In this document: piece by piece, positions 8,372 through 43,654 of the stretch | How positions within the stretch are numbered: position 1 is the first letter of the stretch | Layout: the number at the start of each line of letters is the position of its first letter | Assembly (NCBI GenBank): GCA_000002445.1 | Contig: CM000207.1 | Coordinates: 2,400,001-2,464,000, forward strand | Direction of reading: 5' to 3' | Source: Trypanosoma brucei | Taxonomy: Eukaryota | Length of the DNA stretch: 64,000 bases | Position numbers and translations under genes: made by a program | The notes under the pieces: generated by a model | Databases searched by the model: none | What the model saw: the letters and a program-made list of their open reading frames with translations, nothing else | Told to the model about the DNA's origin: nothing

Positions 8372-9799
8372 ATGCAAGGCACTATGTACTGGGTTGTATT
8401 TTTAGTGGCGGTACTACAGGGTATTCATTTAGTGTCGGGCCAGGAGGAGATATTGAATGAACAAGAGTTTGAAGCGTTGTGTCGAATGATAAATTGGGCA
8501 GAAAGGGGACTGAAGCACATAAAAGTAACAAAACGAGTTACCCAAGAAGCTCTGAAAATAGGCGTAAGATATCTTGAAGTGGCCGGTGAGGAAAATGCTG
8601 CTGAACTCGCTGAGGCACAGGACTATTCTTGTACGAAGAGAATGGAGGATCGGAAAAGGAATTGTGGGCTGTACAAAACATTTTGGGAAGAGGCGCAGAG
8701 AGTATTGAACAAAGGGGTTGACAGCGGAGAAAGACCTGAGCGAAAAAAAAACGGCTTGCGGGAGCACAGTGCAGAGATTAGAAAAAAGGCAATGGAAGTG
8801 GCAGATATATATCACGAAATCGAAGCGAAGAGTCCATCTGGACAAGTAGAAAAGATTGAAGAACAGCTCAATAAAGCTCTTTATGGAAGGACACACACTG
8901 CTGAAGAGATAAGGGAAAGAGAAGAGCGAAGCAGGGTGTGCGGGAAAACATTACCAAATCCACCTAATAGAGAAGACCAATCACTAGCCGTGGATTTGCT
9001 GTGCTTGTGTGCAATGCACGGCTCTTGGAACGGCAGGGAGATATGCTGCGCAGACTGCACCACAGGAAGAAATAGCGAGGAGTGGAATCCAGAATCAAAC
9101 AGCGCGCACCGCTGGGAATTTCTGAAACAGAAGTGTGCGGGAGTCATTCCAAGCTATGGTAGCACGGGGGAAAGACTGCGTGATGCAAAACAAAATTTTA
9201 TGGATGCAGTAACGAAAATAACTACAAGGAGGGGGGAGCAGTTGTCCAAACTAGGAGAAAAGCAAAACAACAACGTAAAAGACTGCGGCGCGGACACAAG
9301 CAAGAGCCAAGGAATATGCATGCTGTACGGAGCAGTTGACGGAGTGAACCTGCCCTGGATGAAAACTTTGGAAAGTGTCGAAGACAGGATAGGACTTCTG
9401 ATGCAAGAGAGCCAAGACAAGACATCAAAACTTGAGAGAATTAAAGAGCTAAGTCAAGAGATAGAAAGCTTAATCAAAGGTGATACGGGGCGAGGAAGAC
9501 AACAGGGAAGACAGAAACGGAGTGTGGATACCGAGAACAGTGTCCCAGAAACCCCAGCTGACCCGAGCGATCCAACACAGTCAACCACAGATACCAATAG
9601 AAAAAAGCAAGGTGAAAGGAAACCGATATCAACAGGTAACGGTGCATCCAAAAGCTACGGTGGAGATGAGGTTGATTCTTACGATTCCAAATGCGATGGA
9701 GAAAACTCGGCATGCTCAGATTCACCAGCAAAGCCAACAGTAAAAAGCAGCAAAAGTGCTATAAATTGTCCACTGGGATTAATTTTGCTTTTGGTATAA
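8372..9799 (+). CDS. array paralog 1: secreted, GPI-anchored variant surface glycoprotein-like protein (475 aa), family unassigned
   Basis: Signal peptide MQGTMYWVVFLVAVLQGIHLVSGQ. Ten-plus Cys, including the LLCLCAMH..CCADCTTG block. Conserved RQKR, then a T/P/S/D-rich tail, then KCDGENSACSDSP, then the hydrophobic end INCPLGLILLLV (GPI-signal-like). Stop taa at 9797-9799 verified. Confidence 0.8.
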   Translation: MQGTMYWVVFLVAVLQGIHLVSGQEEILNEQEFEALCRMINWAERGLKHIKVTKRVTQEALKIGVRYLEVAGEENAAELAEAQDYSCTKRMEDRKRNCGLYKTFWEEAQRVLNKGVDSGERPERKKNGLREHSAEIRKKAMEVADIYHEIEAKSPSGQVEKIEEQLNKALYGRTHTAEEIREREERSRVCGKTLPNPPNREDQSLAVDLLCLCAMHGSWNGREICCADCTTGRNSEEWNPESNSAHRWEFLKQKCAGVIPSYGSTGERLRDAKQNFMDAVTKITTRRGEQLSKLGEKQNNNVKDCGADTSKSQGICMLYGAVDGVNLPWMKTLESVEDRIGLLMQESQDKTSKLERIKELSQEIESLIKGDTGRGRQQGRQKRSVDTENSVPETPADPSDPTQSTTDTNRKKQGERKPISTGNGASKSYGGDEVDSYDSKCDGENSACSDSPAKPTVKSSKSAINCPLGLILLLV

Positions 9800-12700
9800 A
9801 CGAAAAGTTCCAACACAAGGTAAGGAAAAAGAGATGGAATTGGTTGTGTTTGCGGCATCTCAATATTCCACACGGAGTGGGATGGTGTGCATTTCAAAAC
9901 TTGTACAGGAGACACGTGATGCGTCAGAGCAATCGTGCTCAGCAGCACAGCCATCCAGGAAGCCTAAACGAAAGAGGGAAATGTTGGGAGGGTTTATGCT
10001 TCGTGATACTAGTAATGCGTGTTGTTGAGAACCTTTTCATATTAAAAGGAACACTACAAAAACTGAAAGCATTTACGAATGATGGGAAAGCTCATAGAGG
10101 CTATAAACGGCTAAAATGTACCGGCCGTACTGAGTGGGTGGTGTGAAAATAAAAAGGGATATGTTGTAGAGAGTGTCAATACAGGAAGGCTACACAAATG
10201 GAAAGGAATAATAAATACAGAAAAAGGGACGTCATAATATTTTACTGAGCTCCATGCAGGAAGTGCAAGGGATATTTCCAATGGGGAAGTTGGGAAGGTT
10301 AAAAAAAAAGGCGAAAACATATGAGTGATAATGTAAATATAGTCTGATGGAAGGAAGTGTTGCTTTGGAAAAAGACAGACAAATAACTAAAAGAGGATTG
10401 ACTGGAGAAAATGATGCCAGGCGAAACACATAAAAAAATGGGTTCGGGAAGCATGGATATTTCGAACTTGGAACATAAAGACAAAAGAGCAGGAAAAGTT
10501 GTGGGAAATGGCATGTTATATATTTGCATCGTTATAGCAAAAAAAACTGTTTGGTGTGTCGAATGAGTGAAGGAACTGAGGCACTCAAGACCGCTGAATA
10601 AGAAAATGGAGAAGGAAAGCCACGGAAAGTAATGAGGGGATATCTTGAAAGCCGCGCACACAGACACGTACACTTGATAGCGGGGTGTGAAAAAGCAAGG
10701 AGTGGAACAAAAGCCTTCATCGCTATGATGGTTAAGAAATACGACACCACCACAATGCGCTGTATAATTCAAAGCAGACGTATTATTAAAGGGATCGGTA
10801 TTAGTGGAAATACCTGTGGTATTAACCTTTGCGGTGCTTGAAGTGATGGCATGAAAAAGATTAGAGATACCCTCTTCTGTGTTGTGTCGGATACATGGAA
10901 AAAGAAAGTGTGTGCTTGGCCTAAGGATGTAATGTGCTAAACCATAAGGCAGTAATAAAATACCTCAAAGCAATTCTATCGCCAAAAGGAATCGATGATG
11001 CTGTGGTTCAGACGAGAAATATCACACTACAGAATCCGACATTGCATGGGACGCAACTATGTGTCAACGCGGCGGTGATATAAGCTATCAAAGCAAAAAA
11101 TGATGCAATTATGGGGATTTATCATGCAGCAGCGTTGTCTACTATGGAAAATGCAGTAACCACTGAAAAGGAGGAAACATGCTTCAAGGAGCAAAAAGTA
11201 GCAGTGATTGCTGTAACAACAAGATTGTGGTTGTAAATAAAAAAAAAGAAAAGGAAGCGAAACTACGACCCAAGGATATTTAGAGTAGTATCGAAACTGC
11301 CTAAACATCACTAATGAATGCATATTTACCAAATGCGAATATATATGTATATGTGAATATATACGTACATCAATATTCTACAAAAATAGTGCTTTGCAGC
11401 GTGTGAGACTTTCAAAACATTTTTTGTGGAACACTTAAGCATAATTGTTGTTAATGGAAAATTGATCTATGGATACCTTCTTTTTGCTACATGTATTTTG
11501 AATTTGTTTGAGAGGAAAATGGTAACATCTCTGAGGTAAACTCTGGGACAATATAAAAGTGCTGGAGAAAATTTCTTGGTTTGACAGTAGCAATATCATG
11601 AACTAAAGAAGTGATTAAAAGATCTGTAACACGGGAGTATGTGCTTTTGCCATTGTACGATTTTCTTGATATATGCATTGAAGTGATTGATTGAATAGGG
11701 GTGCAAGTCTCATGAAACATGCTCTTCATTCAACCAAGGCTTTTTAGGAATATGCAGCAAAAGTCGAAAAATGACTGACTTGACAACCAAAATGGCGTCC
11801 CTATTCTATTAGTGAAAATTCGAATGAAACAGCACATAATGGAACTACATGAAAATTCAAAGGAAATGTGATATCAAATTCCTAACCCGCTGTATCAAAT
11901 TTCTCACACACCTTTCATAAAAGTATTTTTACATACATGTTTGAATTGAAAACACTCGACAAAATAATTTATGTGATCTGCGTATGAAATGTGTGATGAA
12001 TTCTGCCCAATCGTGCTAATCTCTCTATTATTGTTAAACCTCACCTTACCATTTGTTTCAGTAAAGGCAAGAAAGCAATATTAAATGATGAAATACTGTT
12101 AAACGGTGAAGTTACAAAGGAATATCTTTTCCGCAACAGAGAGTAACTATCTGAGAGGAGTTTAATGAACCGTGTACAATGATAGTGTCAGCACACTAAG
12201 TCTTGGAACAGCATAAACAGACTAGGATAACCAAAGGGGAAGAAGTGACACCTGGTGCTATGCAGTAACTAGCTTCAGAGGCAAAAAAAAGGCTGCTCAA
12301 TCCTATGGAAGCAATGTAACCTCACAGCCGTAGCAGTAGCGTGAATAAGAAAGGAAATGTGAACTTAGAAAAAACATATTGAACTCAAAGTGAAAAAGCA
12401 GAAGCAGTCAACCGCATAGAGGTATCAAAGGCATAACGTAGTTTGTTGGAAGGGGCGCCGAGCAAAATCAAGTTTTAGGCAGGTGATCCGGTATGGATGT
12501 ATCACACTGCACATGGATGCCACAAACCAAGAGACTTTGAATAGATGAAAGGAAAGATGAGAGACTTCGCGTCTATCAGGCGTGCTTGAGTTAGGGGCTG
12601 TAGTGGAAAGCAAACACAAACTGCTTACCCGAAGAGGGACAGTAACATGAACAATCCGAAATGGGTTTCAAACTATCTGGCACAATATCATTTTGACTGG

Positions 12701-15700
12701 GTCTGAGAGAGAGAGCTCTTTGGCCAGAGACAAACACGCGCGTTACTATAACCTTACAAATGACTCGAATACAGATATCAAATGCAATATTCTAAACGAA
12801 TAAAAACAAGGCTCAAGAGGCAACAATGCGGAAGATTCCGTTGAGTTACTTTACGTTAGCGTGAGGGTAGGAAAGAAAATGAAGAGATTTTGTGAATCTG
12901 GAAAAGGAAATGTGAGAACGCAACCCTACAACAGCTTTTAAAATATCCCATGGACTAAAGCGTTGAATAGAATTGACGGGAAAATGAGCAACCTGACTGT
13001 TAGCAAAGACAAGGGAAACTATGGCAAAGCTAACCTAGTTAAGCTGTGGCATCGCCAATTTAATTAAAACAAGCCAGAGTGAAGAGAGGATGCCATTCAG
13101 AGTTATAAGAAAGTAAAGCCATGAAAGTATAATTGGCACGATTACTTTGTTAAATTACGATACAAATACGAGTAAAACACAAATAATAATTATGGGAGCA
13201 AGCCAGGAGTTACCTGTGAAGGTGAAATTACTGCTGATTATAATAGTGCGGGTGTCTCTCGAATGAAACGCGAAAACCGTCGGCACAGTACAGCGTCCAC
13301 GCACTCAAACTGTGAAAGAGGATGTCAGTGGGTCAACGGTGAGATTGTGAGGCCACATCGCAAGCCAGTTATCTAAAACAGTGTGGGATTTGTTCAAACA
13401 TTACCCAGATTATATTTGTTTCTGTTTGTAAACGTGTGATTAGGCACTAAACTTCAATTCTAGCAGTGTTTGAATCTGTAGTACAATTAATATTTACCCC
13501 TTTCGTTTGAAAGTTAGTATAACTCTACGGTTTTGTCGGTCATTCAACGTAGTCTTGAAAGGGCCCAAAAGCACAAATACGTGACTTCTTAACATTTCAT
13601 CAGAGATGCACTACACCACACGGGTGAGCACATTGCCGTAACTAGGGGGTAGGTTTACTTTTTTGACACAGCTTCAAAAAGGTAGAACCTCGAATATGAT
13701 GCAAGTGGACCTCAGGTGGGGACTATCTGGCGCAAGAAAACGCTAGCAGAACTCGGGTCTCTCCCTCGCTTGAGGTAAAAGTTGTGTTGCATTGCGGGCT
13801 TCGGTGACGATTGCTCACTCCTTATTCAGATTTTTGAGGTTACCAAGCATGTAAAGCTAAGGGAGTGCAGTTCTTTCTCTGTAGTTGTTGGGTGAGCGGT
13901 TATGTAAATGTGTATATCTTCACATTTTTATATTTAAATGTTGGCTTTTACGAATTTTTTTGTTTGCAATGGGTTGAAATTACACGGCAACGACGTGGTT
14001 CAAGGTGTGAATTTTACTGATTTAGTTTTTGACGCCATCTCAGTTAGTGAAAGGATACGATGGCGATCCGCAAAGGGGAGGAAAAGGGCTTCCAAATTGC
14101 AGAGACGTACCAAAAATTGACAGGAATTTAGGTTGCTCAAAGGAAAATAATTATAGATATTAAGCGGCAAGAAACTTTGTGCTGGAGAGGCTTCTGGGGT
14201 TGGATTCTGTTTGACAGAAACTGCACGCCATGGCTGATAAGTGAGCTGCTTCCCATGAGGCATAGACGGGTGAATAATGCTTCCCTCAGTTTTTTGAGTG
14301 GGAATTCGTCGCTGTAAAAGATTCACCTGGTGTGAAAAGAATTGATAGAGCGTATCCGAACATTTTAATTACTCCAATCTAAGGAACAAGAAGTGTGAAA
14401 CATCTGGTGAGGGTAGAACGTCTTGTTACCTTAGCTCCCTTGGGCGGAACACAGGTGTAGGGTCGTGTAAAAAAGGGACGAGAGGTGTGTCTTCCTATTG
14501 AAGTTGGAGGTCTCTAGCTGAAAAAAAAAAGCCACTGACTCTAGTGACACGAATAGTCCAGACAATATCCCTAGGCGCGCGCACCTCACAGGCCGGCAGA
14601 ATAGTAAAACTCAATTTTCACTACAATCCAGTTACCAAACTGTACATTTAATCTTACTCTTCCCACTGTAAAAACATATAAGTGTTATTCAACTCGGGTG
14701 CTGAATCCATACCAAAGCACATAGAGGTAACAAATAAAAGTCGCTATTTCTGAAAACTAATTCACACTTGCCTGCGAATGCACACCTTTCCTTTAACATT
14801 CGTAAGACAGTATAGGGTCCTACTGAAGTCCTGGTTTACACAAGATATTATATACGATTGGTCACGCAGTCACCTCTGCTGCTTTCCGGACAATAAAGTG
14901 ACTAACTGCGAAGCATGGCTCTCAATGGGAGAGATTTTCTAAGCGGGTTAAAGAGCCATACTATGGAGACTCATACATGTGTATATTATTGTTGGGGTGA
15001 TTCACCAGCCCTTTTTACAAAATGTATAATATCCTCTTGCATTTGGCAGTGAAGCATAAAAGCGTGCTGCTGTTGTACTGAATATATCCCCTTTCCTTTG
15101 CGGTACCCTCCTTTCTCTTTATAAATAATGAGCCTGGTGTGAATTAGAAGAGTGTGCGAATTTATCCAAAATAGAGTGGGTGTAATGGGAAGACACATCA
15201 TGTGGAGGACACTCCGTATGCTAGCAGCTGATGCTTACGGTGGAAGTGGAAGAAGCATTCAGTATCCGAGGCGTAGTGCCACCTTGCCATAAATTGGCTG
15301 TCGGAGTTGACAAGAGATCACTGAAGTGGCAACCCTCCAAGGGCCACTTAGTGAAGATGTGCGCCATTATGTCGCTAAGACACACATGAAAACATGCACA
15401 GTGGTCGTACCAAAGTATCCTCACCAGCGTAGCAACACAAAAAGTTAATGGAAATTTCCTATGGAAGAGAAACCATGCGATATTCCGGTAAGGCACTTGA
15501 AACCCTTCAGTAGCAGGCGATATCCAAGGATTGTTAACAACATGGAATGAGAATCACAACACACAAGGGGGAAAGGAATCGCAATTACTCTTTGAATATC
15601 AATACTTTTAGAGGGTCGAACTATCATCTGTCATCTGTCCCACGTGGCACTCTCACACACCACATCAAGGGTGATGGGAGAAATTTTTTGTGGGAGCATA

Positions 15701-16784: not shown

Positions 16785-16814
16785 CACTTTTTGGTTCTTT
16801 TTTGATTTTTCTAG
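16785..16814 (+). promoter_or_regulatory. polyY tract + AG (16813-16814): predicted SL acceptor for array gene 2
   Basis: Same conserved element as at 8326-8355. Confidence 0.5.
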
Positions 16815-16830
16815 AGGACAAGGGTGAAAC

Positions 16831-18255
16831 ATGCAAGGCACTATGTACTGGGTTGTATTTTTAGTGGCGGCACTACAGGGTATTCATTTAGTGTTGGGCC
16901 AGGAGGAGATATTGAATGAACAAGAGTTTGAAGCGTTGTGTCGAATGATAAATTGGGCAGAAAGGGGACTGAAGCACATAAATTTGGCACGACAGGTTAC
17001 TGAAGAAGCTCTGAAAATAGGCGTAAGATATCTTGAAGTGGCCGGCGAGGAGGAGGTTACAGAGCTTACCGAACTGCAGGAGAAGGCGTGCATGAGCAAC
17101 AAGAAGACAAGTCACGAAAAGAATTGTGGACTGTACAAAACATTTTGGGAAGAGTCACAGGAAGCATTGAAGAGGACTGCCAGATCGCAAGCGCCTCATC
17201 GAGGAAGGAACAGTTTGCAATATCATACAGCGGAAGGAATTAAAATCAAAGTAATGGAAGTGGCGGATACGTATCACGAGGTCAAAAAAGAAATCTTGAA
17301 ACTTAGAACGGATAACATGGAGGAGCAACTCAATCAAGCTCTTTATGGAGTAGGACATTTTACTGGAGAGGTAAAAGGAGGGGATTCGGACCGAAGCAGA
17401 GTGTGTGGACAAAACCTGGGCAACCGCGACGCCACTGGAGGTTGGTCACTAGCCGTGGATTTGTTGTGCTTGTGTGCGAGGCACATATCCTGGAGCAGCG
17501 TGAAGAGTGTATGCTGTGAGGAGTGCGGTACGGGAGAGAACAGCAACACATGGAACCCAGCATTAGACGGAGCACTACACTGGGAATTTCTAAAAGAGAA
17601 TTGTCCAGGTGATAATACAAATCACCATACAGAGGGCGAACAGCTGAAAAGCGCCAAAAAGAATTTTATGGCAAAAGTGTCTAAAATAGCCACTATCCCA
17701 TATAGAACTATGTACAAGCTTGGAGACAGTAAAAATATACAAACAAAGCAATGCGGGGCTAACATAGGCACTGGCCAGGGAATATGCGTGTACTACGGAT
17801 CTGATAATGGAGCGAATCTGCACTGGATGCAAGCGTTGGAAAGGGTTGAAAATGATGTTGAAGTTCTTCTGCAAGACAGTAAATATAAGTCGACTAAGCT
17901 AAAGAGGATTAAAGAGCTAAGTCAAGAGATTCAGAACCTAATCGAAGGTGGCACGCCGCGGGGAAGACAGAAACGGAGTGTGGATACCGAGAACAGTGTC
18001 CCAGAAACCCCAGCTGACCCGAGCGATCCAACACAGTCAACCACACATACCAATGAAAAAAAGCGAATTGTAAGAAAACCGATATCAACAGGTAACAATG
18101 CATCCAAAAGCTACGGTGGAGATGAGGTTGATTCTTACGATTCCAAATGCGATGGAGAAAACTCGGCATGCTCAGATTCACCAGCAAAGCCAACAGTAAA
18201 AAGCAGCAAAAGTGCTATAAATTGTCCACTGGGATTAATTTTGCTTTTGGTATAA
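16831..18255 (+). CDS. array paralog 2 (474 aa), same family
   Basis: Signal peptide MQGTMYWVVFLVAALQGIHLVLGQ. The C-terminal ~110 aa are near-identical to paralog 3. The internal block RVCGQNL..ATGGWSLAVDLLCLCA is shared with paralog 4. Confidence 0.8.
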   Translation: MQGTMYWVVFLVAALQGIHLVLGQEEILNEQEFEALCRMINWAERGLKHINLARQVTEEALKIGVRYLEVAGEEEVTELTELQEKACMSNKKTSHEKNCGLYKTFWEESQEALKRTARSQAPHRGRNSLQYHTAEGIKIKVMEVADTYHEVKKEILKLRTDNMEEQLNQALYGVGHFTGEVKGGDSDRSRVCGQNLGNRDATGGWSLAVDLLCLCARHISWSSVKSVCCEECGTGENSNTWNPALDGALHWEFLKENCPGDNTNHHTEGEQLKSAKKNFMAKVSKIATIPYRTMYKLGDSKNIQTKQCGANIGTGQGICVYYGSDNGANLHWMQALERVENDVEVLLQDSKYKSTKLKRIKELSQEIQNLIEGGTPRGRQKRSVDTENSVPETPADPSDPTQSTTHTNEKKRIVRKPISTGNNASKSYGGDEVDSYDSKCDGENSACSDSPAKPTVKSSKSAINCPLGLILLLV

Positions 18256-21200
18256 ACGAAAAGTTCCAACACAAGGTAAGGAAAAAGAGATGGAATTGGT
18301 TGTGTTTGCGGCATCTCAATATTCCACACGGAGTGGGATGGTGTGCATTTCAAAACTTGTACAGGAGACATGTGATGCGTCAGAGCAATCGTGCTCAGCA
18401 GCACAGCCATCCAGGAAGCCTAAACGAAAGAGGGAAATGTTGGGAGGGTTTATGCTTCGTGATACTAGTAATGCGTGTTGTTGAGAACCTTTTCATATTA
18501 AAAGGAACACTACAAAAACTGAAAGCATTTACGAATGATGGGAAAGCTCATAGAGGCTATAAACGGCTAAAATGTACCGGCCGTACTGAGTGGGTGGTGT
18601 GAAAATAAAAAAGTATATGTTGTAGAGAATGTCGATACCGGAAGGCTACAAGAATGGAAGGAATAATAAATACAGAAAAAGAGACGCCATACTTTTCACT
18701 GAGCTATCTACAGGACATGGAAGGGATATTTCCAATGGGGAAGTTGGGAAGGTTAAAAAAAAAGGCGAAAACATATGAGTGATAATGTAAATATAGTCTG
18801 ATGGAAGGAAGTGTTGCTTTGGAAAAAGACAGACAAATAACTAAAAGAGGATTGACTGGAGAAAATGATGCCAGGCGAAACACATAAAAAAATGGGTTCG
18901 GGAAGCATGGATATTTCGAACTTGGAACATAAAGACAAAAGAGCAGGAAAAGTTGTGGGAAATGGCATGTTATATATTTGCATCGTTATAGCAAAAAAAA
19001 CTGTTTGGTGTGTCGAATGAGTGAAGGAACTGAGGCACTCAAGACCGCTGAATAAGAAAATGGAGAAGGAAAGCCACGGAAAGTAATGAGGGGATATCTT
19101 GAAAGCCGCGCACACAGACACGTACACTTGATAGCGGGGTGTGAAAAAGCAAGGAGTGGAACAAAAGCCTTCATCGCTATGATGGTTAAGAAATACGACA
19201 CCACCACAATGCGCTGTATAATTCAAAGCAGACGTATTATTAAAGGGATCGGTATTAGTGGAAATACCTGTGGTATTAACCTTTGCGGTGCTTGAAGTGA
19301 TGGCATGAAAAAGATTAGAGATACCCTCTTCTGTGTTGTGTCGGATACATGGAAAAAGAAAGTGTGTGCTTGGCCTAAGGATGTAATGTGCTAAACCATA
19401 AGGCAGTAATAAAATACCTCAAAGCAATTCTATCGCCAAAAGGAATCGATGATGCTGTGGTTCAGACGAGAAATATCACACTACAGAATCCGACATTGCA
19501 TGGGACGCAACTATGTGTCAACGCGGCGGTGATATAAGCTATCAAAGCAAAAAATGATGCAATTATGGGGATTTATCATGCAGCAGCGTTGTCTACCATG
19601 GAAAATGCAGTAACCACTGAAAAGGAGGAAACATGCTTCAAGGAGCAAAAAGTAGCAGTGATTGCTGTAACAACAAGATTGTGGTTGTAAATAAAAAAAA
19701 AGAAAAGGAAGCGAAACTACGACCCAAGGATATTTAGAGTAGTATCGAAACTGCCTAAACATCACTAATGAATGCATATTTACCAAATGCGAATATATAT
19801 GTATATGTGAATATATACGTACATCAATATTCTACAAAAATAGTGCTTTGCAGCGTGTGAGACTTTCAAAACATTTTTTGTGGAACACTTAAGCATAATT
19901 GTTGTTAATGGAAAACTGATCTATGGATACCTTCTTTTTGCTACATGTATTTTGAATTTGTTTGAGAGGAAAATGGTAACATCTCTGAGGTAAACTCTGG
20001 GACAATATAAAAGTGCTAAAGGAAATTTCTGGGTTTGACAGTAGCAATATCATGAACTAAAGAAGTGATTAAAAGATCTGTAACACGGGAGTATGTGCTT
20101 TTGCCATTGTACGATTTTCTTGATATATGCATTGAAGTGATTGATTGAATAGGGGTGCAAGTCTCATGAAACATGCTCTTCATTCAACCAAGGCTTTGTA
20201 AGAATATGCAGCAAAAGTCGAAAAATGACTGACTTGACAACCAAAATGGCGTCCCTATTCTATTAGTGAAAATTCGAATGAAACAGCACATAATGGAACT
20301 ACATGAAAATTCAAAGGAAATGTGATATCAAATTCCTAACCCGCTGTATCAAATTTCTCACACACCTTTCATAAAAGTATTTTTACATACATGTTTGAAT
20401 TGAAAACACTCGACAAAATAATTTATGTGATATGCATGTGAAATGTGTGATGAATTCTGCCCAATCGTGCTAATCTCTCTATTATTGTTAAACCTCACCT
20501 TACCATTTGTTTCAGTAAAGGCAAGAAAGCAATATTAAATGATGAAATACTGTTAAACGGTGAAGTTACAAAGGAATATCTTTTCCGCAACAGAGAGTAG
20601 CTATCTGAGAGGAGTTTAATGAACCGCGTACAATGATAGTGTCAGCACACTAAGTCTTGGAACAGCATAAACAGACTAGGATAACCAAAGGGGAAGAAGT
20701 GACACCTGGTGCTATGCAGTAACTAGCTTCAGAGGCAAAAAAAAGGCTGCTCAATCCTATGGAAGCAATGTAACCTCACAGCCGTAGCAGTAGCGTGAAT
20801 AAGAAAGGAAATGTGAACTTAGAAAAAACATATTGAACTCAAAGTGAACAAACAGAAGCAGTCAACCGCATAGAGGTATCAAAGGCATAACGTAGTTTGT
20901 TGGAAGGGGCGCCGAGCAAAATCAAGTTTTAGGCAGGTGATCCGGTATGGATGTATCACACTGCACATGGATGCCACAAACCAAGAGACTTTGAATAGAT
21001 GAAAGGAAAGATGAGAGACTTCGCGTCTATCAGGCGTGCTTGAGTTAGGGGCTGTAGTGGAAAGCAAACACAAACTGCTTACCCGAAGAGGGACAGTAGC
21101 ATGTACAATCCGAAATGGGTTTCAAACTATCTGGCACAATTCCATTTTGACTGGGTGTGAGAGAGAGTTCTTGGGACAGAGACAAACACGCGCGTTACTA

Positions 21201-25237: not shown

Positions 25238-25267
25238 CACTTTTTGGTTCTTTTTTGATTTTGCTAG
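25238..25267 (+). promoter_or_regulatory. polyY tract + AG (25266-25267): predicted SL acceptor for array gene 3
   Basis: Same conserved element. Confidence 0.5.
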
Positions 25268-25283
25268 AGGACAAGGGTGAAAC

Positions 25284-33705: not shown

Positions 33706-33735
33706 CTTTTTGGTTCTTTTTTAATTTTGCTAAAG
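33706..33735 (+). promoter_or_regulatory. polyY tract + AG (33734-33735): predicted SL acceptor for array gene 4
   Basis: Conserved element, slightly diverged (ttaattttgctaaAGacaagg). Confidence 0.45.
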
Positions 33736-33760
33736 ACAAGGGTGAAACATCCAAGGCACT

Positions 33761-35185
33761 ATGTACTGGGTTGTAGTTTTACTGACGGTACTCCACAGTT
33801 GTCATCGGGCGCTTGGTAAGGAGGATATAGTGAATCAAAAGGAGTTTGAAGCGTTGTGTCGAATGATAAATTGGGCAGAAGAAAGACTTGAGCACATAAA
33901 AGTAACGAAACGAGTTACCCAAGAAGCTCTGAAAATAGGCGTAAGATATCTTGAAGTGGCCGGTGAGGAAGAGTGTAGACACATCGCCAAAGCGCAGGAA
34001 GATTCTTGTACCAAGAAAATGGAGGATCGGAAAAGGAATTGCGGGCTGTACAAAAATTTTTGGGAAGAGGCGCAGAAAGCAGTGAAGGAAAGGGCTTTTA
34101 GCGGAGAGAAGCTGGAGCGTAAAATAGACGCTTTGGGGGAGCATACAGTGGACGAAATAAAAAAAAAGGGAATGTACGGGGCAGATATATATCATGATGT
34201 TGAAGCGAAGAGGCCGTCAGGAAATATGAGAAAAATGGAGGAGCACCTCATTAAAGCTCTTTATGGAATGGAATATTTTAGTGAAGATATAAAAGGAGGG
34301 GATTCAGATCGAAGCAGAGTCTGCGGGCAAAATCTGCGTAACAATAAGGCAACGGGGGGTTGGTCACTAGCGGTGGATTTGTTGTGCTTGTGTGCAACCC
34401 ACAACTCCTGGAAAGGTAGGAAGAAGGTTTGCTGCGCAGACTGCAGTACAGGAGAGAATAGAGACGAATGGAATCCAGAGTCAAACGAGGCACCACGCTG
34501 GGATTTTCTGAAACAGAAGTGTGCAGGCCGTCACCGAAATCGTCACGACATGATCGAAAAACTGAGTGAAGCGGAAGAGAATCTTATGAAAACAGTAACT
34601 AAAATAGGCACAATACCATATACACATACGTACGTGCTTGGAACCGCTGTAAATAGCAGAATAAAACCATGCGGGGCTGATATAAACAAGCAGCAGGAAA
34701 TATGTGTGCACTACGGATCAGATAACGGAACGAAACTTCCCTGGTTAAAAGCGTTGCAAAAGGTAGAAAAGGAAATGAAACTTACGCTGAAAGATAAACA
34801 AGATAAGTCAGCTAAGCTCAAGCGGATGGAAGAACTAAATCAAGAGATCGAAAGCTTAATCAGAGGTGATACAGGGCGAGGAGGCCAACGGGGAAGACAG
34901 AAACGCAGTGTCAATCCCGAGAACAGTGTCCCAGAAACCCCAGCTGACCCGAGCGATCCGACACAGTCAGTCCCACATACCAATGAAAAAAAGCGAAGTG
35001 TAAGGAAACCGATATCAACAGGTAACGGTGCAACCAAAAGCTACAATAGCGAAGAGGATGATTCTTACGAATATGAGTGCGAGGGAGAAAACTCAGCATG
35101 CTCAGATTCGCCAGCAAAACCAACAGTAAAAAACAGCAAAAGTGCTATAAATTGTCCACTGGGATTAATTTTGCTTTTGGTATAA
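33761..35185 (+). CDS. array paralog 4 (474 aa), same family
   Basis: The canonical first ATG is mutated to ATC (aacatCcaaggcactATGtactgg). Translation would begin at the next in-frame ATG (MYWVVVLLTVLHSCHRALG). The C-terminal 105 aa match paralog 5 except one residue (SVNPENS...SVPHTNEKKRSVRKP...EEDDSYEYECEGENSACSDSP). Confidence 0.75.
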   Translation: MYWVVVLLTVLHSCHRALGKEDIVNQKEFEALCRMINWAEERLEHIKVTKRVTQEALKIGVRYLEVAGEEECRHIAKAQEDSCTKKMEDRKRNCGLYKNFWEEAQKAVKERAFSGEKLERKIDALGEHTVDEIKKKGMYGADIYHDVEAKRPSGNMRKMEEHLIKALYGMEYFSEDIKGGDSDRSRVCGQNLRNNKATGGWSLAVDLLCLCATHNSWKGRKKVCCADCSTGENRDEWNPESNEAPRWDFLKQKCAGRHRNRHDMIEKLSEAEENLMKTVTKIGTIPYTHTYVLGTAVNSRIKPCGADINKQQEICVHYGSDNGTKLPWLKALQKVEKEMKLTLKDKQDKSAKLKRMEELNQEIESLIRGDTGRGGQRGRQKRSVNPENSVPETPADPSDPTQSVPHTNEKKRSVRKPISTGNGATKSYNSEEDDSYEYECEGENSACSDSPAKPTVKNSKSAINCPLGLILLLV

Positions 35186-38100
35186 ACGAAAAGCTCCAAC
35201 ACAAGGTAGAGAAAAAAAGAGGATATGGAATTTGTTGTGTTTGCGGCACCTCAATATTCCACACGGAGGGAGATGGTGTGACTTTCAAAACCTGTACAGG
35301 AGACATGTGATGCGTCAGAGCAATCGTCAACTCCAGTAGAGTCATCCAGGAAACCGCAACGAGAGAGGGAGATGTTGGGAGGGTTTATGCTTCGTGATAC
35401 TGGTAATGCGTATTGTTGAGAACCTTTTCATACCAAAAGGAACACTACGAAAATTGAAAGCATTTTCTAATGATGGGAAAGCACATAGAGGCTATAAACA
35501 ACTAAAATGTACCAACCGTACTGAGTGGGTGGTGTGAAAATAAAAAAGTATATGTTGTAGAGAATGTCGATACCGGAAGGCTACAAGAATGGAAGGAATA
35601 ATAAATACAGAAAAAGAGACGCCATACTTTTCACTGAGCTATCTACAGGACATGGAAGGGATATTTCCAATGAGGAAGTTGGGAAGGTTTCAAACAAAAA
35701 AGGAGAAAACATATGAGTGATAATGTTAATGTAAGTAACGGAAGGAAGTGTTGCTTTGGAAAAAGACAGACAAATAACTGAAAGAGGGTTGACTGGAGAA
35801 AATGATGCCAGGTGAAACACATAAAAAAATGAGTTCGGGAAGCATGGATATTTCGAACTTGGAACATAAAGACAAAAGAGCAGGAAAAGTTGTGGGAAAT
35901 GGCATGTTATATATTTGCATCGTAGTCGCAAAAAACTGTTTGTTGTGTTGAATGAGTGGAGAAACTGAGGCACTCACGGCCGCTGAATAAGAAAATGGAG
36001 AAGGAAAGCCATGGAAAGTAATGAGGGAATAGCTTGAAAGGCACGCACACACAGACACACACACGTGATAGCGGGGTGTGGAAAAGCAAGGAGTGGAACG
36101 AAAGCCTTCATCGCTATTATGGCTAAGAAATACGACACCACCAGAATGCACTGCAGTGTTTAAAGGCAGACGAATTATTAAAGGGATCAGTATTATTGGC
36201 TGAAATACCTGTGGTATTAACTTTTGCGGTGCTTGAAGTGATGGCATGAAAAAGATTAGAAACCTCTCTTTGTTGTTAGGTCGGATGCATGGAAAAAAGA
36301 GAGTGCGTGGCTGCTCTAAGAATGTAACGTGCAAACTACAAGGCAGTAATAAAAGACCCCAAAGCAATTCCATGGCCAAAAGGACTTGATGGCGCCGTGG
36401 TTCAGACGAGAAATATCACACTACAGAATCCGACATTGCATGGGACGCAACTGCGTATCAACGCGGCAGTGATATAAGCTATCAAAACAAAAAATTATGC
36501 AATCACGGAGGTTTTTCATGCAGCAGCGTTGTCTACTATGGAAAATGCAGTAACCACTGAAAAGGAGGAAACATGCTTCAAGGAGCAAAAAGTAGCAGTG
36601 ATTGCTGTAACAACAAGATTGTGAGTGGAAATAAAACAAACAGGAAGCTAAACTACGACCCAAGGATATTTAGAGTAGTATCGACACTGCCAAAGCATCA
36701 CTAATGAATGCATATTTACCGAATGCGAATATATATGTATATGTGAATATATACGTACATCAATATTCTACAAAAATAGTGCTTTGCAGCGTGTGAGACT
36801 TTCAAAACATTTTTTGTGGAACACTTAAGCATAATTGTGATTAATGGAAAATTGATCTATGGATACCTTCTTTTTGCTACATGTATTTTGAATATGTTTC
36901 GGAAGAAAATGGTAATATCTCTGAGGTAAAATCTGGAACAATATAAAAATGCTAAAGGAAATTTCTGGGTTTTACAGCAGCAATATCATGAACTACAACA
37001 GTGGTTATAAGATCTGTAAGACGGAAGTACATGTTTGTGCCATTGTACGATTTTCTTGATATATGCATTGAAGTGATTTGAATGAATAGGGGTGCAAGTC
37101 TCATGAAACATGCTCTTCATTCAACCAAGGCTTTTTAGGAATATGCAGCAAAAGTCGAAAAATGACTGACTTGACAACCAAAATGGCGTCCCTATTCTAT
37201 TAGTGAAAATTCGAATGAAACAGCACATAATGGAACTACATGAAAATTCAAAGGAAATGTGATATCAAATTCCTAACCCGCTGTATCAAAATTCTCACAC
37301 ACCTTTCATAAAGGTATTTTAACATACATGTTTGAATTGAAAACACTCGATAAAATAATTTATGTGATCTGCGTATGAAATGTGTGATGAATTCTGCCCA
37401 ATCGTGCTAATATCGCTATTATTGTTAAACCTCACCTTACCATTTGTTTCAGCAAAGGCAAGAAGGAAATACTAAATGATGAAATACTGTTAAACGGTGA
37501 GGGTACAGAGGAATATCTTTTCCGGAACAGAGAGTAACTATCTGAGAGGAGTTTAATGAACCGTGTACAATGATAGTGTCAGCACACCAAGTCTTGGAAC
37601 AGCATAAGCAGGCTAGGATAACAAAAGGGGAAGAAGTGACATCTGGTGCTATACAGTAACTAGCTTCAGAAGCAAAAAGAAAAGCTGCTCAACCCTATGG
37701 AAGCAATGTAACCTCACAGCCGTAGCAGTAGCGTGACTAAGAAAGGAAATGTGAACTTAGAAAAAAACATATTGAACTCAAAGTGAAAAAGCAGAAGCAG
37801 TCAACCGCACAGAGGTATCAAAGGCATAACGTAGTTTGTTGGAAGGGGCGCCGAGAAAAATCAAGTTTTAGGCAGGTGATCCGGTATGGATGTATCACAC
37901 TGCGCACGGATGCCACAAACCAAGAGACTTCGAAGATATGAAAGGGAAGATTAGAGACTTCGCGTCTATCAGGCGTGCTTGAGTTAGGGACCGTAGTGGA
38001 AAGCAAACACAAACTGCTTACCCGAAGAGGGACAGTAACATGAACAATCCGAAATGGGTTTCAAACTATCTGGCACAATTCCATTTTGACTGGGTGTGAG

Positions 38101-41100
38101 AGAGAGTTCTTGGGACAGAGACAAACACGCGCGTTACTATAACCTTACAAATGACTCGAATACAGATATCAAATGCAATATTCTAAATGAACAATAAAAA
38201 CAAGGCTCAAGAGGCAACAATGCATAAGATTCCATAGAGTTACTTGACATTAGCGTGAGGGTAGAAAAGAAAATGAAGAGATTTTGTGAATCTGGAAAAG
38301 GAAATGTGAGAACGCAACCCTACAACAGCTTTTAAAATATCCCATGGACTAAAGCGTTGAATAGAATTGACGGGAAAATGAGCAACCTGACAGTGAGCAC
38401 AAACAAGGGAAACTATGGCAAAGCTTACATAGTTAAGCTGTGGCATGTCAATTTAATTAAAACGTGCCAGAGTGAAGAGAGGATGCCATTCAGAGTTATA
38501 AGAAAGCAAAGCCATGAAAGTGTAATTGACACGATTACTTTGTTACAATCCGATACAAATACGAGTAAAACACAAATAATAATTATGGGAGCAAGCCAGG
38601 AGTTACCTGTGAAGGTGAAATTACTGCTGATTATAATAGTGCGAGTGGCTCTTGACACAAATGCGAAAACCGTAAGCACAGTTCAGCGTCCACGAGCTCA
38701 AACTGTGAAACAGGATGAAAGCTGGTCAACGGTGAGATTGTGAGGCCACATCGCGAGTCAGTCATCTAAAACAGTGTGAATTTCGTTCAAACATTACCCA
38801 GGTTATATTTGTTTCTGTTTGTAAACGTGTGATTAGGCACTAAACTTCAATTCTAGCAGTGTTTGAATTTGTAGTACATTTGATATTTACCTCTTTTGTT
38901 GGAAAGCCAGTACGATTTTACGGTTTTGCCGATTGTTCAACGTAGTCTTGAAAGGGCTCAAAAGCACAACTACGTGACTTCTTAACATTTCATCAGAGAT
39001 GCACTACACTACACTACACGGGTGAGCACATCGCCGTAACTCGGGGGCAGGTTTACTTTTTTGACTCAGCATCAAAAAGGTAGAACCTTGAATATGATGC
39101 AAGTGGACCTCAGGTGGGGACTATCTGGCGCAAGAAAACGCTAGCAGAACTCGGGTCTCTCCCTCACTTGAAGTAAAAATTGTGTTGCATTGCGGGCTCC
39201 GGTGACGATTGCTCACTCTTTATTCAGATTTTTGAGGTTACCAAGCATGTAAAGCTAAGGAAGTGCAGTTCTTTCTCTGTAGTTGTTGGGTGAGCGGTTA
39301 TGTAAATGGGTATATCTTCACATTTTTATATTTCAATGTTGGCTTTTACGAATTTTTTTGTTTGCAATGCGTTGAAATTACACGACAACGACGTGGCTCA
39401 GGGTGTTACATGTACTGATTTAATTTTTAACGCCATCTCAGTTAGTGAAAGGATACGATGGCGATCCGCAAAGGGAAGGAAAGAGACTTCCGGATTGCAG
39501 AGACGTACCAAAAATTGACAGGAATTTAGGTTGCTCAAAGGAAAATAATTATGGATACTAAGCGGTAAGAGACTTTGTGCTGGAGAGGCTTCTGGGGTTG
39601 GATTCTGTTTGAACAGAAACTGCACGCCATGACTGATAAGTGAGCTGGTTCCCCTGAGGCATAGACGGGTGAATAATGCTTTCCTCAGTTTTTTTGAGGG
39701 GGAATTCGTCGCTGTAAAAGAGTCACCTGGTGTGAAAAGGATTGATAGAGCGTATCCGAACATTTTAACTATTCCAATCTAAGGAACAAGAAGTGTGAAA
39801 CATCTGGTGAGAGTAGAACGTCTTGTTACCTTAGCTCCCTTGGGCGGAACACAGATTTAGGGTCGTGTAAAAGAGGGACGAGAGGTGTGTCTTCCTATTG
39901 AAGTTGGAGGTCTCTAGCTGAAAAAAAGCCACTGATTCTAGTGACATGAATAGTCCAGACAATATCCCTAGGCGCGCGCACCTCACAGGCCGGCAGAATA
40001 GTAAAACTCAATTTTCACTACAATCCAGTTACCAAACTGTACATTTAATCTTACTCTTCCCACTGTAAAAACATATAAGTGTTATTCAACTCGGGTGCTG
40101 AATCCATACCAAAGCACATAGAGGTAACAAATAAAAGCCTCTATTTCTGTAAACTAATTCACACTTGCTTGCGAATGCACACCTCTCCTTTAACATTCGT
40201 AAGACAGTATAGGGTTTTACTGAAGTCCTGGTTTACGCAAGATATTATATACGGTTGTTTACGCAGTCACCTCTACTGGTTTCTGGACAAGAATGTGACC
40301 AGCTGCAAAGCATGGCTCTCAATGGGAGTGATTTGCGAGTCATGTTAAAGAGCCATGCTATGGAGACTCATACATGTGTATATTATTGTTGGGGTGATTC
40401 ACCAGCCCTTTTTACAAAATGTGTAATATTCTCTTGCATTTGGCAGTGAAGCATAAAAGCGTGCTGCTGTTGTACTGAATATATTCCCTTTCCTCTGCGG
40501 TACCCTTCTTATCCTTTTTAAATGATGAACTTAGTGTGAATTAGAAGAGTGCACGAATTTATCCAAAATAGAGTGGGTGTAATGGGAAGACACATCACGT
40601 AGAGGACACTCCGTATGCTAGCAGCTGATGCTTACGGTTGGAAGTAGAAGAAGCATTCAGTATACGAGGCGTAGTGCCACCTTGCCATAAATTGGCTGTC
40701 GGGGTTGACAAGAGATCGCTGAAGTAGCAACTCTCTAAGGGCCACATAATGAAGATGTCCGCCATAATGTCGCTAAGACACACATGAAAACATGCACAGT
40801 GGTCGTGCCAAAGTATCCTCACCACAGTAGCAACACAAAAAGTAAGGGTGAGTTCCTATGGAAGAAAAATTATGCGATATTCCGGTAAGGCACTTGAAAC
40901 CCTTTAGTAGCAGGCGGTATCCAAGGATTGTTAACAACAAACATGGTATGAGAATCACAACACACAAGGGGAAAGAGGAACAATTACTCTTTGAATCTCA
41001 ATACTTTTAGAGGGTCGAACTCTCATCTGTCATCTGTCCCACGGTGGCACTCTCACACACCACATCAAGGGTGATGAGAGAATTTTTGTGTAAGCATATG

Positions 41101-42189
41101 ATGGTCAGTGAGTTGGTGAAAAATGGAGCATATTTGCAGCACTGCCGTTTTTGTTATTTTCTACTCCAGCACTTTTGATACAGTGGGCCATATCAGGGTT
41201 GTGCAATAAATGCGTAAAGTTGGTGGAGAAAAGTCTAACACCCTCTGCACCGCATCCTTACCAACAGAATGAGTAGCAGCAGCTCCCTGAGATAAATCAC
41301 TTCCCCCTTACAAGAATAGTTTAACAGAGGGCAGGCGAAAGGCACAGTGTTCGGCCTTTCAATGTTAAAAGCTGCAGTTAACTCCCTTCATTTTCTTACC
41401 AAACATCCCAAGACACAGCTTAAAGCACGGATTCTTTGTGAAATACTCGTCGGTGAGGAGAGGAAACGTGGATGGCTCTTCAGAAGGGACTGAATGTTAT
41501 AGCTGTGATAGGAATCCGTATTTACTTCGGGAAAGTCGTCACGAAGAAAACAGGGTGTGAGGTGTTGAGAGGACATTTTGAGGTCACAGTAATGGGGAAA
41601 CGCGGCGACACCCACTCCATGTTGAATTTATATCCACACCGTTAGTGTACTGGCAAATCGGATATCCGCAGCGCCTTCTTACCCATAGAGTGCAAAGTGA
41701 AGAATACAAACTGACATTGGCACTTTTCATTACTTCCAACATGTATTACACACGCGTTACTCGGATGTAAGATATCGTGTGATTACAGGAGTTATTTCAA
41801 ATATTAATAAAGCTATGGAGAGTAATAGTCTCCTTATCCTTTTTCACCCAATCTGTCATTTCATATAGTTTCTTCCATGAGAGTTCGATGATATGGAACA
41901 ATAATGTGTGGTGGAGCATATGTGTGAAAAGAGGAACTGACGGCACTTTTACTCTTGTCACCGGGTAAAATGAATTAGGAGCTATGGAAGACTTTCTCAT
42001 TGAGGGTTATGACGCTGCCTCACTATTTCATGGGATTCGTGCGAAGGGAAAACAGAAAAATTATGTTTCAGCAGTAGTCATGAAAATCTTACTTTTTTGT
42101 ACCTGAAGTAATAACCCTGAGAACACTGAAACACTTCCATGAGACGTGTAGAAGAATGTCGAAATGCCAAGAAAGATCATAATACTTCA

Positions 42190-42219
42190 CTTTTCTGTTT
42201 TTCTTTAATTTTGCTAAAG
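42190..42219 (+). promoter_or_regulatory. polyY tract + AG (42218-42219): predicted SL acceptor for array gene 5
   Basis: Conserved element (cttttctgtttttctttaattttgctaaAGacaagg). Confidence 0.45.
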
Positions 42220-42232
42220 ACAAGGGTGAAGC

Positions 42233-43654
42233 ATGCGGAGAAGTATGTACTGGGTTGTATTTTTAGTGGCGGCACTACAGGGTATTCATTTAGTGTCGGG
42301 GCAGGATATAGTGAATCAAAAGGAATTTGAAGCGTTGTGTCGAATTGTAAATTGGGCAGAAAAGGGACTGAAGCAGATAACTTTGGCACGACAGGTTACC
42401 CAAGAAGCTCAGAAAATAGGCGTGAGATATCTTGAAGTAGTCGGTGAGGAAAATGCTGCTGAGCTCGCCAAAACACAAGAAGATTCTTGTGCATATAAAA
42501 GGGAGGTTGGCGGAAGGAATTGTGTGCTGTACAAAACATTTTGGCAACATGCGCAGGAAGCATTGAAGGGGACTGCCAGATCGTCAGTCCATCACAGAGC
42601 AATGAATACATTGGAATATCATACAATTGAAAAAATAAAAGAAAAAGCAATGCACGGGGCAGATATATATCACGATGTTGGAGCGGAGAGTCTGTCAGTA
42701 AAGGTGGAAAAGATTGAGCGGAAAATCAATCAAGCCCTTTATGGAATGGAATATTTCACCGAAGAAATAAAGCCAGGAGGAGACAGGAGCAGAGTGTGCG
42801 GTCAAAGCTCGCGTAGTGAAATGATTATTGGAGGAAACTCACTGGCCGTGGACTTTTTGTGCTTGTGTGCAATGCACAGTTCTTGGAATGGAATAAAGGT
42901 ATGCTGCACAGACTGCACTACGGGAGAGAATAGCAATGAATGGGACCCAGAATCAAACGGAGTACAACGTTGGAAATTTTTGAAACAGAAATGTGCTGAT
43001 CATAATCCAAATTATTATGACACGGAGAAAAGACTGCGTAATGCAAAACAGAATTTTATGGATACAGTAACAACGATACATGGAAGAGGAGGAAGAACTT
43101 TGTACAAACTTGGGAAAAAGCAAAGCAGTGAAGTAAACAACTGCGGGGCGGGTACTGGCCGCGGGCAAGGAATATGCGTGCTATATAAGGGACATGGAGA
43201 GGAGCTGCCCTGGATGAAAGCGTTGGTAGAGGTCGAAAATGAGATGGAAGTTCTGCTTCAAGACAAACACAATAAGTCAGCAAAACTAGAGAGAATTAAA
43301 GAGCTAAGTCAAGAGATAGAAAAGTTAATCAAAGGTGATCCGGGGCGAGGAGGCCAACGGGGAAGACAGAAACGCAGTGTCAATCCCGAGAACAGTGTCC
43401 CAGAAACCCCAGCTGACCCGAGCGATCCGACACAGTCAGTCCCACATACCAATGAAAAAAAGCGAAGTGTAAGGAAACCGATATCAACAGGTAACGGTGC
43501 AACCAAAAGCTACAATAGCGAAGAGGATGATTCTTACGAATATGAGTGCGAGGGAGAAAACTCAGCATGCTCAGATTCGCCAGCAAAACCAACAGTAAAA
43601 AACAGCAAAAGTGCTATAAATTGTCCACTGGGATTAATTTTGCTTTTGGTATAA
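42233..43654 (+). CDS. array paralog 5 (473 aa), same family
   Basis: Signal peptide MRRSMYWVVFLVAALQGIHLVSGQ. C-terminus as paralog 4. Internal blocks are shared with paralogs 2, 3 and 4. Confidence 0.8.
   Translation: MRRSMYWVVFLVAALQGIHLVSGQDIVNQKEFEALCRIVNWAEKGLKQITLARQVTQEAQKIGVRYLEVVGEENAAELAKTQEDSCAYKREVGGRNCVLYKTFWQHAQEALKGTARSSVHHRAMNTLEYHTIEKIKEKAMHGADIYHDVGAESLSVKVEKIERKINQALYGMEYFTEEIKPGGDRSRVCGQSSRSEMIIGGNSLAVDFLCLCAMHSSWNGIKVCCTDCTTGENSNEWDPESNGVQRWKFLKQKCADHNPNYYDTEKRLRNAKQNFMDTVTTIHGRGGRTLYKLGKKQSSEVNNCGAGTGRGQGICVLYKGHGEELPWMKALVEVENEMEVLLQDKHNKSAKLERIKELSQEIEKLIKGDPGRGGQRGRQKRSVNPENSVPETPADPSDPTQSVPHTNEKKRSVRKPISTGNGATKSYNSEEDDSYEYECEGENSACSDSPAKPTVKNSKSAINCPLGLILLLV

Follow-up and report, generated by a model that had tools for sequence, protein, structure and literature searches.

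Mosaic N-terminal domains and near-identical flanks in a tandem array of five VSG-related genes of Trypanosoma brucei chromosome 9

Five VSG-related genes in tandem

In this study we analysed a 64-kb stretch of chromosome 9 of Trypanosoma brucei brucei TREU927 (hereafter the window, meaning the whole stretch of DNA), which holds five forward-strand coding sequences (CDSs) related to the variant surface glycoprotein (VSG) genes. An earlier note on this DNA had described the five genes as mosaics resulting from repeated short-tract recombination. The open reading frames (ORFs), each of 473-475 residues and about 8.46 kb from the next, lie at the coordinates given in that note (Table 1), and all five are annotated in TREU927 as 'variant surface glycoprotein (VSG, atypical), putative'. 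A large protein database yielded no more than nine close homologues, the five array members included. The other four are two further TREU927 proteins encoded outside this contig (CAJ16160 and CAJ16171, compared at the protein level only), one protein from T. b. gambiense DAL972 and one from T. equiperdum.

Each gene encodes a signal peptide, a b-type VSG N-terminal domain (NTD), a short atypical C-terminal domain (CTD) and a predicted glycosylphosphatidylinositol (GPI) signal, for which the hydrophobic C-terminus ending in CPLGLILLLV appears suited. Matches to the Pfam family VSG_B (PF13206) cover profile positions 2-351 of 352, with E-values of 5.2e-84 for paralog 1 and 1.4e-85 for a second match. 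All ORFs are intact, and 14 cysteines are conserved across an alignment of the nine proteins, in which the CTD carries only two conserved cysteines and one more in its tail, whereas canonical VSG types have four or eight. An AlphaFold model based on the nine sequences (mean pLDDT 51) predicts long helices at residues 30-71, 98-117 and 130-171, but its confidence does not permit a fold search or a placement of the variable blocks. Paralog 4 begins with MYWVV at position 33761, as does the additional TREU927 copy CAJ16160; in paralog 4, upstream codons matching MQGT can be aligned by tBLASTn from 33749 (33749-33761), without an ATG, and its signal peptide is therefore four residues shorter. In the Gly/Arg-rich linker between NTD and CTD, a dibasic RQKR(SV) motif (9509-9520 and equivalents) is invariant in all nine proteins and could be a candidate cleavage site of the proprotein-convertase type.

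Table 1. Features of the array and its surroundings (window coordinates)
Feature	Position	Strand	Remarks
Tandem array	6903-46181	+	39 kb; unit ~8.46 kb, 4.64 periods; structure (S X)4 S
Paralog 1 CDS	8372-9799	+	475 aa; EAN77376; 100% match to TREU927 protein
Paralog 2 CDS	16831-18255	+	474 aa; EAN77377
Paralog 3 CDS	25284-26708	+	474 aa; EAN77379
Paralog 4 CDS	33761-35185	+	474 aa; EAN77382
Paralog 5 CDS	42233-43654	+	473 aa; EAN77385
Hypervariable NTD cassette, paralog 1	8522-9439	+
NTD cassette equivalents, paralogs 2-5	16981-17907; 25431-26348; 33899-34825; 42380-43294	+
CTD and GPI signal, paralog 1	9440-9799	+	two main types, {1,2,3} and {4,5}
Short shared tract, paralogs 1 and 4	8531-8593 = 33908-33970	+	100% identical; 25 consecutive polymorphic sites; unrelated sequence either side
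Short shared tract, paralogs 3 and 5	25857-25885 = 42803-42831	+	24 consecutive polymorphic sites; 'QSSRSEMIIGG' block
Paralog 3 C-terminal switch	26331-26496; 26429-26676	+	identical to paralog 1; identical to paralog 2
a-to-b flank junction in unit 3	26987-27185	.	'a': upstream and CTD of units 1-3, spacer of units 1-2; 'b': upstream of units 4-5, spacer of units 3-5
Spacer segment X	12322-15365	.	one copy after each of units 1-4; others ~20777-23818, 29233-32295, 37715-40767
PAG/ESAG6-like gene	4132-5439		upstream of array; weak A-type VSG domain
RHS gene	47587-49359	-	downstream of array; Pfam search

Patchwork relationships among the five genes

The five genes share protein motifs in non-nested combinations, and each motif listed in the earlier note was recovered in exactly the paralogs claimed for it. 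The signal peptide MQGTMYWVVFLV is common to paralogs 1, 2 and 3, HIKVTKRVTQEALKIGVRYLEVAGEE to 1 and 4, LARQVT to 2 and 5, EEIREREERSRVCG to 1 and 3, RVCGQSSRSEMIIGG to 3 and 5, RVCGQNL.N..ATGGWSLAVDLLCLCA to 2 and 4, and ALYGMEYF to 4 and 5. Towards the C-terminus, NPENS, SVPHTNEKKRSVRKP and EEDDSYEYECEGE occur in paralogs 4 and 5, and the type with STTHTNEKKRIVRKP and GNNASKS in paralogs 2 and 3; DTENS by itself is present in paralogs 1, 2 and 3, the complete C-terminal type only in 2 and 3. Paralog 3 switches within its C-terminus from the pattern of paralog 1 to that of paralog 2, being 100% identical to the former at alignment nucleotides (nt) 1069-1234 and to the latter at nt 1167-1414.

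The patches are directly visible in the DNA alignment, where within 150 nt paralog 1 matches paralog 4, then paralog 2 matches paralog 5, and then paralog 1 matches paralog 5. Blocks shared between NTDs measure roughly 30-150 nt. Several of the tracts that match between two copies give way to unrelated sequence at both ends, a pattern characteristic of short-tract conversion or of a double exchange. Near-identical tracts (at least 30 nt, approximately 95% identity or more) common to another array copy account for only 15-24% of each NTD, the remaining similarity consisting of older, eroded blocks of 75-92% identity, and the array copies differ from one another at 28-37% of NTD nucleotides. Most tracts are old, and the bulk of the NTD represents old divergence. 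At the 5' edge of the variable cassette of paralog 2, in the region of INWAERGLKHINLARQVTE, Tandem Repeats Finder reports an imperfect repeat (16948-17005; 31-nt unit, 1.9 copies, consensus ATAAATTGGGCACGAAAGGGGACTGAAGCAC), which might supply slipped microhomology.

Statistical tests on a codon alignment of the five CDSs, which the earlier note had proposed as a check, gave strong evidence of recombination. The alignment contains 259 parsimony-informative sites, among which all ten possible 2:3 splits are supported, with sites of like split clustering in runs. Over the whole CDS the pairwise homoplasy index (PHI) was 0.376, compared with 0.465±0.007 after permutation (z=-13.0; 0 of 5000 permutations), and the neighbour similarity score (NSS) gave z=+6.4. 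The PHI signal persisted when the alignment was limited to nt 1080 and below (z=-7.6) or to nt 150-1080 (z=-7.7), and was present both at third codon positions (z=-4.5) and at first and second positions together (z=-8.7). In addition, 80 alignments were simulated on the best single tree with the observed spatial (autocorrelated) and codon-position pattern of rates retained; they yielded z-scores for the NTD of -0.05±0.91 (minimum -3.5) against an observed -8.5, and about 109 informative sites against an observed 220. This best single tree is itself nearly star-like, with internal branches of 0.02-0.05 and terminal branches of 0.17-0.21.

Individual exchanged segments were identified with a GENECONV-style test, which measures, in polymorphic sites, the longest uninterrupted agreement between two sequences and compares it with 2000 permutations of the sites. 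Significant runs (each with p<1/2000) joined paralogs 1 and 4 (nt 160-222, 25 sites), paralogs 3 and 5 (nt 583-611, 24 sites), paralog 5 and the T. b. gambiense gene (nt 695-752, 30 sites) and the T. b. gambiense and T. equiperdum genes (nt 312-604, 181 sites), as well as the C-terminal regions of the pairs 1-3, 2-3 and 4-5. Furthermore, a breakpoint scan by dynamic programming, with parsimony over all 15 five-taxon topologies and site-permuted alignments as the null, saved 60 steps with two breakpoints (K=2; 16.6±3.4 in permuted alignments) and 89 steps with eight (K=8; 37.8±3.7). Along the CDS there are at least eight changes of best topology, the order from 5' to 3' being (12)(45)3, (14)(25)3, (13)(24)5, (14)(23)5, (13)(24)5, (24)(35)1, (14)(23)5, (13)(24)5 and (23)(45)1. 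PHI, NSS, simulations, run tests and topology scan agree that no single tree accounts for all segments; the outcome that would have spoken against the earlier note, namely a lack of significant recombination together with one phylogeny fitting every segment, is clearly at odds with these data. The five genes really are patchworks of one another, produced by repeated short recombination.

Diverged N-terminal cassettes in near-identical units

The mosaic lies in a sharply bounded cassette with a core of about 0.93 kb. Among units 1, 2 and 3, nucleotide diversity (pi) is approximately zero up to position ~8496, rises to 0.17-0.47 as far as ~9434, and is again approximately zero from 9534. Within the core, pairwise synonymous divergence (dS) is 0.66-1.30 and dN/dS 0.29-0.53, and the pooled proportion of synonymous differences (pS) reaches 0.4-0.6 over the NTD proper (about alignment nt 180-1110).

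Outside the NTD, by contrast, the units carry one of two haplotypes, designated 'a' and 'b', which are about 100% identical within a type and 85-95% between types and are arranged in kilobase-long blocks (6903-8400, 9534-12300 and the equivalents in other units). The upstream 1.4 kb separates units {1,2,3} from {4,5} with 105 supporting sites, as do the CTD and 3' flank with 56, while the next 2.2 kb of spacer separates {1,2} from {3,4,5} with 123. Single-nucleotide polymorphisms in the flanks thus form kilobase blocks of the partitions 123|45 and 12|345, whereas the NTD shows every partition together with 130 multistate sites. The flanks also hold small patches with other partitions, for example 1|2345 at 10156-10266. 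The order a,a,a/b,b,b along the array suggests that it is a recombinant of two internally homogenised arrays.

Since the non-coding sequence adjoining the NTD has diverged by only 0-15%, the synonymous divergence of the NTD implies that the NTD lineages are far older than the flanks that surround them. Two histories fit this contrast: homogenisation may have acted on the flanks and spared the NTDs, or young units may have received NTDs that had already diverged. Point mutation after duplication, or positive selection on amino acids, cannot by itself produce it.

The T. b. gambiense locus is syntenic, comprising an adenylate cyclase gene (+ strand), a PAG-like gene, one VSG-related gene and an RHS gene, and this single-copy locus matches window positions 1-12322 and 40807-50012, that is, segment S only (the gene-bearing part of the repeat unit, described below). 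Its single unit may be an ancestral array that was reduced (or collapsed in assembly) or the state before an original duplication with filler DNA; either fits. T. b. gambiense and TREU927 are 96.5-100% identical to the left of the array and 82-96% in the non-coding parts of the unit. Divergence is thus 0-3.5% over window positions 1-6000, where the PAG-like gene is 99-100% identical, and rises to 4-18% from ~6000 through the array unit and the RHS region (to 50700). Such divergence inside the unit indicates that the locus holds old, shuffled lineages and not just recent paralogues. The T. b. gambiense gene carries tracts of 96-100% identity common to paralogs 5 and 4. Between the T. b. gambiense gene (L001, 10001-11431) and the T. 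equiperdum gene (L002, 8361-9794), identity is 97-99% over the first ~660 nt and 66-82% thereafter, a shift in the second half of the NTD that is a clean between-strain recombination breakpoint. In the alignment of the nine proteins, every copy is a different recombination of one set of discrete block types, and because blocks are shared with T. b. gambiense, T. equiperdum and the additional TREU927 copies, exchange was not confined to the five genes of the array.

One alternative is a recent duplication of the units, after which faster mutation or positive selection would have driven the NTDs apart; motifs held in common would then be due to convergence or constraint and not to recombination. 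Flanks of about 100% identity and the single copy in the T. b. gambiense assembly are what such a history would leave, and similar arrays have been read as recent duplication followed by rapid divergence (Jackson et al. 2010, PMC2854126). However, an NTD dS of 0.66-1.30 combined with pN/pS of 0.3-0.8 indicates that amino-acid selection was not the driver, the PHI signal holds at third codon positions, and single-tree simulations with clustered rates fail to reproduce it. The same blocks are moreover present in other subspecies, and the 4-18% divergence of the T. b. gambiense non-coding unit sequence speaks for old lineages. We therefore consider recent duplication with rapid divergence very improbable; it is largely refuted by dS, third-position PHI and the sharing of blocks across subspecies.

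A more serious alternative replaces ectopic conversion among the five paralogs by crossing-over (meiotic, allelic or unequal) between diverged haplotypes of the array in the population. Blocks would be shuffled as misaligned or allelic units cross over time and again, and the present array would be an a/b recombinant. The two flank haplotypes with their single main a-to-b junction in unit 3, the blocks common to T. b. gambiense, T. equiperdum and the extra TREU927 copies, and the one clear breakpoint by which the T. b. gambiense and T. equiperdum genes differ are all in keeping with this account. Nevertheless, tracts of 30-70 nt bounded on both sides would each need two exchanges, which is effectively conversion, and the small flank patches such as that at 10156-10266 are also conversion-like. 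Taken as a replacement for conversion, crossing-over is possible but in our view the less likely account; the two processes are not mutually exclusive, and meiotic exchange probably contributes. On the present data, ectopic conversion between members of the array is not distinguishable from exchange involving alleles or other haplotypes.

Self-comparison of the window showed the tandem repeat, with Self-BLAST offsets of 8459, 16912, 25375 and 33857 (identity 87-93% over 5-31 kb). The repeat is made up of the gene-bearing segment S of ~5.4 kb and a segment X of 3.05 kb that occurs only between units. Segment X is missing from the T. b. gambiense single-copy locus, and since that locus has one S and no X, the TREU927 array is best written as (S X)4 S and not as an integer number of simple duplicates. 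Spacer ORFs of at least 70 residues were noise-like with no Pfam match, no Rfam family or tRNA was found in the spacers, tBLASTn recovered from them no relics of the neighbouring PAG-like, RHS or VSG-related genes, and segment X had no further match elsewhere in the window. Recurrent ORFs of 151-217 residues are found in the spacers (9691-10146, 18147-18602 and 26600-27055 on the forward strand; 10299-10772, 18753-19226, 27244-27897 and 35726-36379 on the reverse strand), some of them overlapping the 3' end of the VSG-related genes. With their low-complexity translations and no Pfam match, they are unlikely to be real genes and probably correspond to the extra 'hypothetical' gene models placed between the VSG-related genes in public annotation.

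Repeats of this kind raise the question of assembly, in which reads from near-identical repeats or from two haplotypes might have been merged into a chimeric consensus. Flanks of 7 kb that are 99-100% identical were hard for a Sanger-era assembly, and TREU927 is heterozygous, further copies of the gene lying on contigs that have not been placed. The shared blocks of 30-150 nt, however, sit in a unique, highly diverged region of ~1 kb, which is covered by single reads; none of the five ORFs is interrupted, and independent T. b. gambiense and T. equiperdum assemblies show like sharing of blocks. An artefact is accordingly a most unlikely source of the mosaic: mis-assembly could alter the order or number of units, not the intragenic patchwork.

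Beyond the array, GC skew changes sign at ~46 kb, from which we infer that the array ends a forward-strand gene run at a convergent strand switch beside the RHS gene. Further downstream of the RHS gene lies an AT-rich stretch (52000-56000, GC 0.26-0.30) with an (AAT)17 microsatellite at 54937-54987, and the reverse-strand ORFs at 51240-51782, 56599-57324, 58718-59416 and 63279-63986 have no Pfam match.

Proposed mechanism and relation to known systems

Two-scale homologous recombination acting on the chromosome 9 array of five VSG-related genes is the best explanation of these observations, and one that we hold to be probable. In T. brucei, homologous recombination depends on the length of homology and is limited by mismatch repair. 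Under such constraints, long conversion or unequal exchange would keep the well-matched flanks uniform and could also move whole units or exchange, duplicate or delete them; the junction between 'a' and 'b' in unit 3 would be one such event. Exchange inside the diverged NTD would be limited to short tracts with conserved motifs as anchors, and its partners would be other members of the array, alleles, and haplotypes present in the population. The fold is preserved by purifying selection, as indicated by the intact ORFs, the 14 conserved cysteines and pN/pS below 1, and loss or homogenisation of NTD variants appears to be disfavoured, which would let ancient NTD lineages persist in young flanks. 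That deeply diverged NTDs do persist in young flanks suggests, short of demonstrating, selection against losing NTD variants. The data show the mosaic with its statistical support, the contrast between flanks and NTD, and the occurrence of shared blocks in different subspecies. The mechanism is what we infer from these patterns, the dependence of recombination on homology length and the precedent of mosaic tandem arrays, and the same holds for the order, date and enzymes of the exchanges and for the selective advantage of diversity.

Several observations weigh against this interpretation or restrict its detail. A sliding-window analysis found no positive selection in any NTD window (pN/pS 0.4-0.8 across the NTD, never above 1), so diversifying or balancing selection is deduced from persistence and not demonstrated. 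Painting of the Li-Stephens type gave 75 switches compared with 89±8.5 in permuted codons and, not being discriminating, was not relied on, and some of the identical tracts are motifs conserved family-wide. Tract lengths and event numbers are rough with only five to seven sequences, and no direction from donor to recipient can be assigned from one genome and two single-copy relatives. Finally, unit order and haplotype assignment rest on a 2005-era assembly of near-identical 7-kb repeats from a heterozygous strain, and two further TREU927 copies (CAJ16160 and CAJ16171) lie off this contig.

The genes appear to belong to the VSG-related (VR), or 'atypical VSG', genes of T. brucei that Marcello and Barry reportedly described in 2007 (a study cited in PMC2771046, PMC2854126 and PMC3605285). 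The array shares with that class a b-type VSG NTD, a site away from expression sites beside a strand switch and a lack of 70-bp repeats, and nothing substantive differs. No tandem repeat was found upstream of any of the five copies, the core motif of the 70-bp repeats matched only inside CDSs and at three mismatches, and the 16-mer of the VSG 3' untranslated region (UTR), TGATATATTTTAACAC, had no match with two or fewer mismatches in the 64 kb. Without 70-bp repeats or 16-mer, nothing ties the array to antigenic-variation switching.

The earlier note had also equated the process with the mechanism by which trypanosomes build mosaic VSGs, and here only its short-tract recombination is borne out. 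Mosaic VSG formation is a somatic process at the active telomeric expression site, whose donors, for the most part pseudogenes, have 70-bp repeats and a conserved 3' end. Likewise, short homology-limited tracts give rise there to new NTD combinations in the VSG superfamily; the present mosaics, however, are carried in the germline by intact genes whose array lies inside the chromosome, and the absence of flanking elements of the expression-site type argues against somatic assembly at an expression site. By analogy, the array would work like mosaic VSG formation, of which it is not a member. A similar comparison can be made with the bacterial loci Anaplasma msp2, Borrelia vlsE and Neisseria pilE/pilS, in which a variable central cassette likewise lies between conserved flanks that give recombination homology. 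Those loci combine one expression site with silent promoterless cassettes and switch somatically, whereas the present array consists of five complete genes with no evident expression-site logic.

Of 35 tandem arrays of T. brucei, 31 have previously been reported as mosaic on the basis of PHI and GARD (Jackson et al. 2010, PMC2854126). The recombinant arrays of that study, for example ISG65, resemble the present one in being tandem surface-protein genes with mosaic evidence of the PHI/GARD type and in differing in copy number between T. b. brucei and T. b. gambiense; its recombination tables do not include the present array, and it mentions on chromosome 9 a 'segmental duplication in T. b. brucei of an atypical VSG' (PMC2854126). 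The Fam1 VSG-like array of chromosome 6 (Jackson et al. 2013, PMC3605285) also has five tandem VSG-derived genes at a strand-switch region and a single T. b. gambiense copy, but its copies differ by 0.1-3.2%, in contrast to the 28-37% of the present NTDs, and the present genes keep their CTD. In the literature searched (by gene identifiers and VR recombination), we found no earlier description of the intragenic mosaic of this array or of the contrast between its flanks and NTDs.

Expression of what we take, from gene order and number and the adjacent RHS gene, to be this same array has been reported: the 'VSG-related' genes Tb09.244.2200, 2240, 2280, 2310 and 2330, five in number and next to the RHS gene Tb09.244.2180, have low-level mRNAs that were 3-8-fold higher in cultured bloodstream forms (Jensen et al. 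2009). VR proteins have furthermore been detected in the bloodstream-form surface proteome (Gadelha et al. 2015, PMC4587319).

A more far-reaching and tentative reading, which we consider doubtful, is that the locus constitutes a self-contained germline cassette system maintaining diversity in a surface protein outside the VSG coat. In such a system the near-identical 7-kb flanks would act as recombination handles, divergence would insulate the ~1-kb NTD so that exchange would be short and motif-anchored, and an ancient pool of NTD modules would be kept under balancing selection. If true, it could serve, for example, the binding of polymorphic host ligands or the evasion of antibodies by an invariant-looking receptor.

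Recombinant mosaics are already well established both for tandem arrays of T. brucei and for the VSG family, and the array is a clear, previously unanalysed example of this well-known phenomenon in a known gene class, involving no new mechanism. Its most interesting aspect is the presence of ancient NTD cassettes within near-identical flanks. It has been stated in print, as a general rule, that gene conversion does not reach VSG islands inside chromosomes; the present island fits this rule poorly, and the rule has to be qualified. VR proteins are little-studied parts of the bloodstream-form trypanosome surface, and here one VR array keeps five intact, deeply diverged NTDs in almost identical units, with short blocks exchanged and circulating among T. 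brucei subspecies. These NTD variants are probably maintained by selection, and the proteins are thus worth testing as ligand-binding or immune-exposed molecules.

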